Under the pieces are notes generated by a model. The model made no database searches. It was not told the DNA's origin and was given only the letters and a program-made list of their open reading frames with translations. A stretch of 64,000 nt of DNA, from assembly GCF_032062105.1 (NCBI RefSeq), contig NW_026941189.1:1-64000 (forward strand), given 5' to 3'. Position 1 is the first letter of the stretch. Each line of letters begins with the position of its first letter. The position numbers were made by a program, and so were the translations under genes. The DNA comes from Saccostrea cucullata (taxonomy: Eukaryota). Of this stretch, positions 44,604 to 63,764 are shown in pieces.

Positions 44604-47600
44604 ATGGATGCCTCCATTGAAAAATGTTCTATCAGTGTTTATGCTTCAAATTGCTGTTCTTTTTCACCTTTGCATCCATCAGAAAAAAATTTGATTAGAT
44701 TAAAAGACTGTAAGAGAGGTATTGTATCACATCTGTTGAAAAATGGGATTCGATCTGGCATGAAAGGAGAGGCTGATGTGTTCAGTGAAGCAGACCTAAT
44801 ATGTAAGCGTGTGGGACTTTTCACTGTTGAGGAAACATTTACGGTATGTCCCTATCACAGAGACTTTCTTGGTTTACATTGGCGCGCCAAGACCACTTGT
44901 CAGTATCCTAACCACCAGGGAAATGCCAAGCCGTATCGGAGTTTCAACTCTCTTATGTCTAAGCGGATGGTTTCCGAGTTTGGTACTTTAGTGCCTATAG
45001 GTTCTGGTAAGTTAATTTATATTACCTAAGATAATTTAATCTAAATAAAAAAATAATCAGAATACTACAGTTTAATATCTTAATTTTTGAAGCTGTTTCC
45101 GTGAGACAAGGGGGGGGGGGTCTGTATATTAGCTAGTATATGTATAATCACTATAATGCAGTGATTTTACTATAAAATCCTATTTTTTAGCTTCTGATTT
45201 AACATGTTTAATGATGCAGTGGTCATAAAAAATCCAAAGATGCGAAATGGAAATCGTTTATTGTTTGTTGAAGTAATCATGGTAATTAATAAATATGAAA
45301 ATTTAATTATCAAAAATCAGGGTTCTCAAATCCCATACAATCATGTTTAATTGTATTTTAATTATATAATTTAAATGAATGTTTACAAGTTTTAAAAATA
45401 CATTCTTTTAACATGACTAAAGTATACATGTATACTAATTATGCATGTTAACATACTAGACAAATTGATTGATTTGATCAGCTCATGTTTTGATGATTAT
45501 ATTTACTATTTAGATGTTAAATGCATTTCAGACCCAAATTAATACATGTAGTTCTTATGTGCTACATCTTCATAATGTATTTAACCACACACATATGTGC
45601 ATGTATATATATGTAACCGGAAGTAGAACTCTTCAATGTATAAATTACCAAAGTTACTAGCCAACTCGGCTTAAAGGAGTAAACTATCTCCAGTTATCAA
45701 TGATCAACCCAGGTAAGGGGATTTCTGAACTATGGTCAACGCTAAATGAAAACACAGTTGTAAGTTTTATCAATTTAATAAAGTGAGAATTAACCGTTGT
45801 AAATGATAACAAATAATAAATATTGATCAAAATTTAACAAACAGAAAAGTCTTTGAAAATGGCACAGGATAAATGAAGCTTTATCAAAAATGTAATTTAA
45901 TCTGAAAAATGAATCTCAATAATCTCAATGAATAATCTCAATAAATAAATAATTGAAAAATATAATGAAAAATGGGAGGAATGTGGCAAAACTATGAAAA
46001 ATAATCTATGTCCCTACTGGGCTACCATACTTATCAAAAAGGTGAAAAATTCTAAAGAGATGAAAAAAATGTAAAGGGAATGAGCTACATCACCCAATAT
46101 GACTACTACCAACACTCTAGAGTTAAACTGAAAATATCAATACTAATTCTAGGCTCTAAATATAACTAACCCAGAAAATAAACAACACCCAAAAATAAAT
46201 AATAAATAGTGGCTCTAGAAAATAAACCTGTTATCTACATATCCCTAGACCAGGCTGGACTTGGAAAGGGGAAACTAAATTTACTTTAAATACCCTACAT
46301 CCTAACTGTTTCCTAACATGTGAAAAACGTGAAACTAAATCTAAGCCAAAACCTAGAGAACTTGTTAAACCATAAGGTTTTCTTAGTCCACTAAGTATCT
46401 AATCAAATAGTGCTCATAAACCATAAGGTTTTCTTAGCACAGAAAAGAGGAACTAACCATGAGGCTGTGTTCCCCAACCCAAGTGAAGAAAACTACACGA
46501 ACACGGGTTTAAATACCCTGACAAGGCCCAAAATAAAAGCCAATGACTATCAAAGATCCTAAAGCTAAATTAACCAATCAGAACGCAGGTATCAAAAGTA
46601 CTACGGAAAGACTGCCAACATGGATGACACTTCCTGTTTAAAAAAGTAAAACATGTGGAATGTCAACTCATGTCCTAACTTATAAAAGACAAATAATAAA
46701 GGACTTTTACGTAAGTAACAACTGAAAACAAATGGTAAATAGAATTATCAGACTGAAATACCAGCAAATACTTGTAAATAATGAATTACGAAACGATGGC
46801 TATGAAATAAAAATCTAAACCACTACATTCCTCCCCCCTTAAAAAAAACAAAATTTACACAGTAAATTTTCGTTTCAACACAAGACAAATGTTCATGTCA
46901 TTGTCACTACACAAGGTCCTCTGGGAGTTCCGGGAATGGTAACACAGTGCGGATCCAGTGGTCACACAACTGTCATGGTCTAGTATCTCGTTTCATCGCG
47001 ATCGTTCATCAGGCACAACACAAGGTCCTGGTGTATAAAGAGAGTATTGCGGCTCTTCAGTATCGTCTTCTTCTAAGAACATCAGCTGTAAACTTGTGCG
47101 AGAAATTGTATAACAAGGATTAGAAAAGTATTTAAGCAAATCAATCACCATCAATGCAAGTTTTGAAGTCAATTTACCTCTATGAAAAATAACTTTTAAA
47201 ATTAAAATCTTAAATTCTAAGACTTTAAATAATATCAGAATAAATATGGAAAGTTAATCAATATAGTTATCTACCAAATTCAGAATCCACTGAATTTAAA
47301 CCAAATATGTTATTAAGTAGCGCGCAAATACTTATAACATAACCTAACAAGGGATGACCATGCATCACCTCCCATAGATAAACTATAAGAAAAACTTAAG
47401 TGTTGATTTCAGCACAGTACAAGGGAGATAATTTAAAGATCATCTACGGTCAGTATTAAACTAGGAATACCAAGCTCTCAATGATTCATAACTATTATTA
47501 CTGTTACTGAATAAGCCGAAAGAACTGAAATATACTGTTTTGACTTCTAGATAACTATAAATCATTGCCAACTACTGTGTCTTATCAGATAAATAAAACA

Positions 47601-62600: not shown

Positions 62601-63764
62601 CTTCTAGATGCCATTGCTCCTCATCAAGGAGAGAGACTTAAGAAGATGACATTACCAAATTCGGAAGCTAATGATGATGACCTTTTTCGTGTTGTCGGTG
62701 AGCTGTACCACAATATCAAGGATGCAGATGTGAAATGTCAACTTTTGTCTCTAATAGTAAATAGATGTTCAAAGGCTGAACTGTTGACAAAGTTTCCAGA
62801 AGTTACAAAACATCAGATAGATAAAGCCAGGAGACACGCTTTCATAAATGGTCCTGGATCAGGTGTTCAGCAAACAGTATCTTCTCAACACAGACAAAGA
62901 ATCAATTTTGCAAAGTTACAGCATGCAGTGGAATTTTTCAGTGATCCATCATTCAACCAGATTTCATCGTACACTACAAGGAACCTCAAGCTAGATTCTG
63001 GAGACACCTTAGTAATTCCTGATGTAGTTAGGACTATGATCCATTCAAATTTGATCAAACTTTACAACACATACTGCGCCAGTAATAACTTTGAGCCTCT
63101 CAGTGAGTCCACTCTATATGAAGTCCTAAATGCATGCAGTGCATCAAAACGGAAGTGCCTGAAAGGACTTGATAACATTGCTGTTGATGGATCTTCTGCA
63201 TTTGACAGTCTGACTAGCTTAGTTGATAAGCTTGATGAGCCTCAGCAATGGAAAAAAGAACTGAAGGAAAAGCTGTTCAATGCTCGACTGTACTTAAAGA
63301 CTGACTACAAGCTCCACATCAAGCGGGAAGATGAATGCGCTTTCCACTGCTTACAGTATGCACTTAGTGACCCCAAATCAAGCCATCTTAGTGTTTCATG
63401 TGACCATGAGCATAATAACAACTGCAGCAGGTGTAACTTATTTGATGAATCTGTCACGGAGATCCGCAAGGTCATCATAAAGTCTCCATCAGAAGAGCAA
63501 GAGGTACTACTGCAAGATTTGGAAATGTCCATAACACAAGTAGAGGACTGGAGATCACACATCATAAGAACTGTGAATCAGGATGACGGAAGGGTAGATG
63601 TGCTGCATAATCTGAACAACAACCAGGTTTTAGTGATTTTAGACTGGGCGATGAAATATTTGCCGCAGATGTACCGTGAGAAAATGAAAGACTTCTTTGG
63701 ACAGAAAGGCGTACACTGGCATGTGTGTGTTGCAGTTTTCAAGGAACAAAATGGAAGTCTAGTG
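44604..63764 (+). CDS. Multi-exon DDE transposase, Sola3-like (3' part outside window)
   Basis: Exons 44604-45006, 56956-57011, 57609-57698, 57846-57914, 59199-59389 and 62564-63764 sum to 2010 nt = 670 codons with GT-AG boundaries, consistent phases and no stops. Motifs: N-terminal Cys/His cluster (CPYHR, CQYPNH, G|ICRKC), RTLR|YYKRKA...[52 protein letters not shown]...[10 protein letters not shown]. Confidence 0.8.
45612..46827 (-). repeat. Gypsy 3' LTR
   Basis: tgtaaccggaagtag...ccactaca, direct repeat of 53155-54379, adjacent to the PPT. Confidence 0.97.
47893..51783 (-). pseudogene. pol: Gypsy pol (protease, RT, RNase H, integrase) with one in-frame TAG
   Basis: [31 protein letters not shown] (TAG at 50583-50581 replaces the conserved Trp), YLDDII, TDAS, HHCC zinc finger, HSDQG and GLVER. 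Confidence 0.95.
51780..53114 (-). CDS. gag: Gypsy gag, 444 aa, with CCHC zinc knuckle
   Basis: PDKFDG...W..Y..HFE...NNW capsid-type region and [14 protein letters not shown] knuckle. Overlaps pol, which lies in the -1 frame with G GAA AAC near the gag end. Confidence 0.93.
53129..53147 (-). promoter_or_regulatory. Primer-binding site complementary to the tRNA-His 3' end
   Basis: Plus-strand aatcctggtcacggcacca matches the 3' end plus CCA of invertebrate tRNA-His(GTG) as I recall it. It lies 7 nt from the 5' LTR. Confidence 0.85.
53155..54379 (-). repeat. Gypsy 5' LTR
   Basis: Direct repeat of 45612-46827, adjacent to the PBS. Confidence 0.97.
55109..55317. mobile_element. Tc1/mariner-type MITE
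   Basis: TIRs ctgtaaaccaacttttatttgcg / cgcgaataaaagttggtttacag, with TA on the left. Confidence 0.75.
56802..56862. other. GC-rich hairpin, probably the end of a non-autonomous element (~56437-56865)
   Basis: tatag..gagc...ctctcacgggccc-ttcg-ggcccgtgagag..gctc...ctata. Confidence 0.55.
58158..58322. mobile_element. Long palindrome / fold-back element end
   Basis: ~58-bp arms taaggaatcactgtctag...cgatagtgggaaac / gtttcccactatcg...ctagacagtgattcctta, with an inner stem around gggcaaagccc. Confidence 0.7.
59393..59663 (-). mobile_element. Short HINE inserted immediately after a splice donor
   Basis: aacaagatatgtttgtaaaacac...ccaaatttcatttcagtatgtgcaac...gacagacagcagcaaagcaatatgccctcccttcttcgaaggaggggataa (terminal hairpin). 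Confidence 0.7.
60011..62351 (+). mobile_element. Nested cluster of three HINEs: outer element, a ~180-bp satellite-bearing insert (60181-61165) and an insert at 61452-62090
   Basis: Three left-end hairpins each followed by a microsatellite (60011, 60181, 61452). Five copies of tttgtcagcgcaactcctcataaaccgctgcacagaatttcgtcaaactttg...gtgcatattaccaggaaattc. 61452-62090 is the reverse-complement family of 13761-14343. Confidence 0.75.

Follow-up and report, generated by a model that had tools for sequence, protein, structure and literature searches.

Intron-bearing transposases and large elements with fixed nested insertions are already in print. CACTA transposons are described with one to six exons (PMC4158355), TLEWI Tc1-like elements of bivalves with two to five introns (bioRxiv 10.1101/656579) and giant DNA transposons of Ectocarpus (KDZ, EnSpm and Sola-1) with fixed nested insertions (PMC12477816). 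Open reading frames (ORFs) of Sola3 type have been reported from bivalves (64 elements, PMC10294476), Sola3 is said to be without a Pfam model (PMC5751038), and the literature passages available hold no description of Sola3 exon structure or ends. We analysed the first 64,000 nucleotides of contig NW_026941189.1 of Saccostrea cucullata (NCBI RefSeq assembly GCF_032062105.1), hereafter the window; coordinates follow contig numbering and positions past 64,000 continue the same contig. A first-pass annotation of the window had proposed a Sola3-like transposase with an intact reading frame in six exons, and hence either a giant still-competent transposon or a domesticated host gene. Our results make it very probable that the locus is one copy of a low-copy TTAA family, with terminal inverted repeats (TIRs) of ~ 31 bp and an eight-exon predicted DDD transposase, and that this copy is frameshifted and likely dead as a source of transposase.

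The element measures 24,075 bp, homology to other copies of the family beginning at 44175 and stopping at 68249. Its left TIR (44175-44205, forward strand) is ~ 31 bp long, imperfect and starts with GTACTGTTCC, its right TIR ends at 68249, and both recur in other copies. The transposon lies inside the 5' long terminal repeat (LTR) of an outer Gypsy element, the left part of which occupies 43763-44174 on the forward strand while the remainder resumes at 68250, and the TTAA target-site duplication is found at 44171-44174 (forward strand) and at 68250-68253. Both flanks match many LTR copies on other contigs, the left flank also matches the outer Gypsy's own 3' LTR near 76.6-77.7 kb of the contig, and all five sister LTRs listed hold a single TTAA and no element. 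These empty sister sites are a direct sign of insertion by transposition. The outer Gypsy itself continues at 68254-77700; its two LTRs differ at 41 of 1,033 sites and its 5' LTR has a closer counterpart on another contig (an LTR with 21 mismatches in 1,031) than in the 3' LTR of the element, which suggests a recombinant element.

Searches of the genome, whose counts are lower bounds, recovered at least 12 left ends of the family, two pairs of which have common flanks, leaving about ten sites. Since TTAA precedes all 11 left ends that have a flank (it also follows the right end in two of three full copies), a TTAA duplication was preferred over a TA duplication with AGTAC ends, which reads identically at the window site. 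Among the four near-full copies the ORF is intact in two, C15191 (11,705 bp) and C11325 (12,324 bp), each with both ends, eight exons and an open frame of 1,099 codons. C11839, which is without a right end, carries a nonsense codon at 1029 (shared numbering) and the window copy a frameshift. Furthermore, C8232 is internally deleted, other copies are truncated or split, and solo right-end fragments of ~ 140 bp occur at two loci that share a flank, where the stretches examined contain no match to the transposase. TIRs, a target-site duplication with empty sites, dispersed copies and a predicted RNase H-like acidic triad are all present, as in a cut-and-paste DNA transposon, and the whole is a low-copy transposon family of usual appearance. 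A domesticated gene would be expected as a single copy with its TIRs lost and its frame intact. Here the family is multi-copy and keeps its TIRs, and both outcomes that had been named as refuting domestication were observed, since one of the later exons is frameshifted and copies bounded by TIRs are dispersed over about ten sites.

Six exons of the transposase gene lie in the window, all on the forward strand. Exon 1 (44604-45006, 403 nt) encodes a Cys/His-rich N-terminus with GSG at its end; it is followed by exon 2 (56956-57011, 56 nt), exon 3 (57609-57698, 90 nt), exon 4 (57846-57914, 69 nt), exon 5 (59199-59389, 191 nt) and exon 6 (62564-63764, 1,201 nt), the last of which holds the first predicted catalytic Asp, D630, in LDWAMK (63642-63644). 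The start of intron 6 takes up 63765-64000 on the same strand and the element runs on past the window. Introns 1 to 5 are GT..AG throughout with phases 1, 0, 0, 0 and 2, the joined exons amount to 2010 nt or 670 stop-free codons, and the GSG / ICRKC motif is interrupted by an intron of 11,949 nt. On all these points the six-exon model first put forward was borne out; the intact frame claimed with it holds for the 670 codons within the window but not past it, where exon 8 is frameshifted. The claim of a spliced transposase of Sola3-like type is likewise upheld, as identical exons and splice sites are found in all three other near-full copies (C15191, C11325 and C11839). Compared with C15191, the window copy differs at 52 of 3,241 exon sites (1.6%) and at 238 of 5,577 intron sites (4.3%). 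Two annotated public Saccostrea proteins give the same picture: P0054 is identical to the window model of exons 1 to 5 over 270 of 270 aligned residues, P0053 is identical to the gene model of C11325 over 1,099 of 1,099 residues, and their gene models have the same exons, but each with one donor placed 6 nt further on. Given the recurrence in three copies, the stronger conservation of exons than of introns and these annotated proteins, chance does not account for the four short exons, and the six window exons are genuine.

Beyond the window, exon 7 (64126-64321, forward strand) carries the second predicted Asp, D714, and exon 8 (64761-65793, forward strand) the third, D755. The whole gene therefore has eight exons and seven introns, and the intact protein 1,099 residues. 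Extension of the model past 64000, which the first-pass annotation had proposed as a check, thus recovered the two remaining predicted Asp and the right TIR but also a lesion in exon 8: at about 65042, 61 bp that are present in the three other copies are missing from the window copy, and the resulting frameshift places a stop codon at position 831 of the 1,099. In the assembly sequence, the open full-length frame that characterises an autonomous copy is therefore lacking at this locus. The frameshift lies downstream of the three predicted catalytic Asp, but the protein loses the last part of its fold-matched region (which runs to about residue 879), a C2H2 finger that is invariant among the homologues and a module predicted to be homeodomain-like. 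The deletion starts at TTAA, the target motif of the element, which could be due to chance or be the footprint of a TTAA-targeting element.

The giant, still-competent transposon of the first-pass annotation does not agree with a window copy cut at codon 831, nor with intact copies of only 11.7 and 12.3 kb. It could be restored if the deletion were an assembly error, in which case the window copy would be an intact and competent element of 24 kb that splices out a 12-kb intron with a whole Gypsy in it. This would suit the finding of a single lesion in 3.2 kb of coding sequence, the presence of both TIRs, the joining of exons 1 to 5 across the long intron in P0054 and the low ratio of nonsynonymous to synonymous divergence (dN/dS) on either side of the lesion (0.17 upstream, 0.09 downstream). 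We nevertheless regard it as very improbable, for the 61-bp deletion is a clean loss with 2-nt microhomology and well-aligned flanks, which resembles a repair deletion, and the insertions in the introns, described below, appear to have come after the landing of the transposon.

Intron 1 holds an inner Gypsy LTR element at 45612-54379 (8,768 bp, reverse strand), with a TATA duplication, LTRs that differ at 14 of 1,219 sites and, in pol, an in-frame stop in the reverse transcriptase region near 50580. Next to it is a multi-copy ~ 2.3-kb repeat (54380-56858, with 106 matches among those listed in the genome) which has a GC-rich hairpin at its right end and contains a ~ 220-bp inverted-repeat element, or miniature inverted-repeat transposable element (MITE), at about 55097-55319. 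The high-copy repeats of intron 4 (58158-58641) are common to both intact copies and carried by the family. In intron 5, HINE-like repeats extend over 59430-62080; three are common to the intact copies (95-100% covered), and a further HINE-like element of 984 bp with a 180-bp tandem core (60183-61166) is nested in another such repeat. The names MITE and HINE are given here by structure, that is inverted arms and tandem cores, and not from a repeat library. The inner Gypsy, the ~ 2.3-kb repeat, the MITE and the 984-bp element are private to the window copy. As the majority of its intronic repeats are present in both intact copies, again with 95-100% coverage, these have travelled with the family.

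The inner Gypsy and the repeats are indeed in the introns, as had been noted, but the selection at this locus that was deduced from their placement does not follow. The repeats are mostly family-wide, and the chance that four private insertions all miss the exons is 0.32 for a 3.3-kb coding target in an element of 11.7-15 kb, a figure computed before allowing for any AT-rich target preference. Moreover, the Gypsy or the 2.3-kb insert is found in none of the three other copies, and the outer LTR pair is more diverged than the inner one, which fits insertions after landing. The order outer Gypsy, transposon, inner Gypsy is in line with these LTR divergences, the clock being rough, and the divergences lend no support to a transposition of the 24-kb form with the Gypsy aboard.

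In order to follow expression and splicing, an RNA contig run (X6) and a raw RNA run (X21) were aligned to C11325. In record 22 of X6, exon 6 extends to letter 233 and exon 8 starts at letter 428, with room for exactly 196 letters, that is exon 7, between the predicted splice sites, and the record is ungapped across the site of the 61-bp deletion. In record 21 (1,443 letters), exon 6 starts at letter 476, and an X6 contig of depth equal to that of record 21 covers a site in exon 3, as a spliced transcript of exons 1 to 6 would. These joints are deduced from piece coordinates, the listed rows of the joint table (15 of 684) being all in repeats. The X6 alleles match no assembled copy exactly: among 17 listed sites, two are shared solely with the window copy and five with no copy (C11839 being unaligned at two of these). 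The coverage of X21 falls chiefly on intronic repeats, with a little at the 3' end. The RNA junctions looked for are thus seen as exon 6-7-8 splicing in another copy and not as a transcript of the window copy itself, and the family shows splicing and at least weak expression, judging from the transcript of a copy other than the window copy.

The predicted protein has the features of a transposase. The residues D632, D716 and D757 (P0053 numbering; D630, D714 and D755 in the window) are invariant in the 46 homologues with a residue there (47 aligned), and C915, H933 and H939 of the C2H2 finger (P0053) are invariant in 47 of 47 aligned proteins. In the AlphaFold model (mean predicted local distance difference test score, pLDDT, 74), residues 626-772 are arranged in the order strand-strand-strand-helix-strand-helix-strand-helix, with one Asp on the first strand, one after the fourth strand and one at the start of the last helix. 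The best matches in a wide fold search were retroviral integrases and the Mos1 transposase, with Z of 9.8-10.6 over residues about 600-890 and a root-mean-square deviation mostly of 3-3.6 Å over 135-167 residues; the C-terminal homeodomain-like region (995-1067) gave a weak match with Z about 7. From this conservation and the model, the Asp triad would be catalytic and the protein is a predicted DDD-type transposase.

The full protein matched no Pfam family, including those of piggyBac, at E <= 0.01, and the Pfam matches of four exon translations were all below the curated cut-offs. A sequence search of the PDB gave matches to the C2H2 finger, no transposase and no close solved relative, and ESM Atlas returned unnamed eukaryote clusters with DUF7869 on 12% of the members of one cluster, which is a lead only. 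The 46 homologues (P0001-P0046), from oysters, mussels, scallops and corals, are 33-92% identical over exon 6 and have the Asp, Cys and His conserved; they are annotated as 'uncharacterized' or 'C2H2-type domain', with no transposase among the names listed. The closest named relatives are oyster proteins, and identity amounts to 92% in Saccostrea echinata, 82% in Magallana gigas and 63% in Mytilus californianus.

The purifying selection on the coding sequence that had been claimed is confirmed by Nei-Gojobori counts. Between the window copy and the three other copies dS is 0.048-0.050 and dN 0.007-0.009, giving a ratio of 0.145-0.18, and since dS is close to the intron divergence, dN is truly low. 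Changes private to the window copy comprise 15 nonsynonymous and 24 synonymous ones (p about 1e-7 against the site ratio). Constraint is equally strong in the codons past the frameshift and in those preceding it, with 3 nonsynonymous and 9 synonymous changes in the former, so that it predates the lesion. A model in which the copy has evolved neutrally only since the arrival of the inner Gypsy expects 14.5 nonsynonymous changes where 15 are observed, which is consistent with it and not a proof. The target of this purifying selection was most plausibly the lineage as it transposed and not the window locus. In two other families of this genome, the ratio is about 0.07-0.38 between older copies, and some of the youngest copy pairs differ solely or mainly by nonsynonymous changes; the tree of the families, which has long branches, was used for grouping families only.

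The private changes could also be taken to mean that the host has recruited the window copy or its 830-residue product, as a domesticated gene or a dominant-negative repressor, and departure from neutrality, a stop that falls in the last exon and an identity to relatives that tracks host relatedness would all fit such a gene. It is however the least probable of the explanations considered, and remotely so. The copy sits inside an LTR with empty sister sites and has kept its TIRs, the family occupies about ten dispersed sites, the Mytilus relatives are multi-copy too, on different long contigs (4 named members, one protein cluster), and the sole transcript seen comes from another copy. Furthermore, a recruited truncated protein would leave unexplained why dN past the frameshift is as low as before it. 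We read the window copy as a transposon that is probably in decay and not as a gene tamed by the host.

Several observations weigh against reading the locus as a dead copy of a family selected while it moves. The 61-bp deletion is known from the assembly alone and is not among the listed rows of the read-joint table (15 of 684, all in repeats), and with the stop in the last exon and the predicted catalytic Asp upstream of it, an 830-residue product is possible. The right end of the full copy C15191 is followed by TTGC instead of TTAA, X21 is almost without depth in the repeat-free exon bins and yielded no junction, and Foldseek gave no match at E <= 0.001, integrases and Argonautes being weak (E >= 0.0025). 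As for selection, changes confined to a single copy, when those of three families are pooled, retain a bias towards synonymous ones (29 to 25 nonsynonymous) and do not differ significantly from shared changes (23 to 10; Fisher p 0.18), one 'shared' pair in these pooled counts (C21163 and C14750) having the same right flank and being probably allelic. The comparison of tip with shared changes thus does not support a clean split between selection while moving and neutrality after landing.

Vertebrate DNA transposons have been reported to evolve neutrally within a genome (PMC7070016), so the synonymous bias found here needs an explanation. It may stem from low copy number, each element depending on its own transposase, or from separate entries of sub-lineages. 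In the latter case the copies would have entered the genome independently, by horizontal transfer or oyster hybridisation, with selection acting during the transfers, as has been reported for DNA transposons in vertebrates; we consider this possible, though doubtful, and it would change the reason for the low dN/dS and not the status of the window copy. The 4-5% by which the window copy differs from the others at silent sites would accord with it, as would a DNA run whose label names another organism (X5) and that holds the element with 35 differences in about 2,340 letters of one piece. The same bias is however seen in three families of the genome, each of which would need repeated transfers, and the host divergence is undated, so that transfer is only hypothetical. 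We put forward with comparable reserve that the GTAC-ended eight-exon lineage persists by descent in bivalves with very few copies, held under purifying selection inside the host genome.

The history of a low-copy transposon with one broken copy in the window is probably as follows. An intact copy of ~ 12 kb would be transcribed and then spliced by the host (the splicing of exons 6-7-8 being observed for another copy), and the 1,099-residue protein, through its predicted RNase H-like core (Asp 630, 714 and 755), would cut the element out at its GTAC ends and insert it at TTAA sites. The window copy reached the Gypsy LTR in an event of this kind, its insertion being shown by the empty sister sites. 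It then likely gained four non-coding insertions (the 2.3-kb repeat, the MITE within it, the 8.8-kb Gypsy and the 1-kb HINE-like element), and exon 8 likely lost 61 bp. The low dN/dS likely records selection during the transposing phase of the lineage, which would be expected with few copies per genome and an element mostly dependent on its own transposase. Hypothetically, the window copy, with both ends intact, could still be moved in trans by an intact copy.

Elsewhere in the window, an uninterrupted Helitron Rep/helicase frame of 2,008 codons lies at 34373-40399 (forward strand), with a herpes-tegument-like match at its N-terminus and a weak endonuclease match at its C-terminus. A single frame of 679 codons at 23220-25256 (reverse strand), with Mab-21 nucleotidyltransferase and TPR matches, is likely a host cGAS-like immune-type gene, and about seven near-identical tandem units of ~ 1.2 kb occupy the contig start (1-7900). 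CpG counts per 2 kb are mostly 10-22 (one bin 41) at 30001-54000 against 26-65 in the first 28 kb, and this low-CpG stretch spans the Helitron, the LTR and the inner Gypsy.

A search of the genome with exon 6 gave 109 matches. Four other families have inverted ends 10-13 kb apart and intron positions in common. Among six related copies with a TIR pair, TTAA is found at both ends in four; C2402 has it at a single end and C21836 lacks it at both, and C14750, a relative of C21836, has TTAA at its left end. Three of the related families start with GTACAG and have a GTAAGAA-CAG-like motif in common with the window family, and one starts with GTGAG. Their TIRs range from about 26-33 bp up to about 770 bp, and for C11514, C14750 and C21163 no TIR pair was found within the stretches examined. 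The ~ 770-bp TIR belongs to the C2402 element (about 130,960-142,970), which has the same GTACAG start as the short-TIR families, so that both lengths occur in one clade. In C15615, C2402 and C416, and in C21836 as judged by the alignment end, the intron after GSG (codon 135) has a GT donor in the same position; the introns at codons 670 and 736 occur in all of the three GTAC-ended families but not in C416 or C11514. In light of these shared introns and the 10-13 kb spans, intron-bearing elements are normal for the group in this genome.

The locus itself, a swollen and broken copy, is of small importance. The family is a modest gain, since it supplies a TTAA-targeting transposase in two copies that are intact and spliced, and it belongs to a group without a Pfam model, whose members public annotation lists as uncharacterized host genes and of which ORF screens requiring 300 uninterrupted codons would detect exon 6 or 8 only. 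If the lineage does persist by descent under this selection (dN/dS about 0.1-0.3, in three families), it would be an exception to the reported rule of neutral evolution within hosts and dependence on transfer, and its introns would date back to the divergence of families that are only 40% alike. Should the selection hold up with no horizontal transfer involved, the pattern reported in PMC7070016 would have an exception open to test. No Sola3 sequence was found in the supplements searched, which comprised 12 of the 33 of PMC10294476 and one of the two of PMC3985635.

Compared with described systems, the family is like CACTA and TLEWI elements in its intron-split transposase with positions kept across families, TLEWI copies having moved with their GT-AG introns, but it belongs to another superfamily, has seven introns and keeps TIRs, which TLEWI elements are without. 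With the Ectocarpus giants it has in common elements of more than 10 kb with nested repeats shared among copies; unlike them, its shared form is about 12 kb, only one copy, a broken one, reaching 24 kb. Kolobok and piggyBac share the TTAA duplication, and Kolobok, which needs RR..YY termini (PMC9587614), is excluded by the GT..AC ends of the window family. The family is also unlike piggyBac, no Pfam family of which matched the full protein at E <= 0.01. Its end structure varies among its relatives in the genome, as the ~ 770-bp TIR of one and the GTGAG start of another illustrate. The first Sola3 elements described, in the 2009 account of the Sola superfamily by Bao and colleagues, reportedly have GAG..CTC ends and long TIRs, unlike the GTAC ends and ~ 31-bp TIRs found here. 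The third conserved acidic residue, which opens the helix that follows the core in the model, is Asp, and this makes the predicted triad DDD and not DDE, as in Sola3. The label 'Sola3' may apply on account of the TTAA duplication, the DDD-type triad and the large Cys/His-rich transposase, which are features of Sola3. In sum, the transposon resembles the TTAA-specific cut-and-paste type and is, by these features, Sola3-like.

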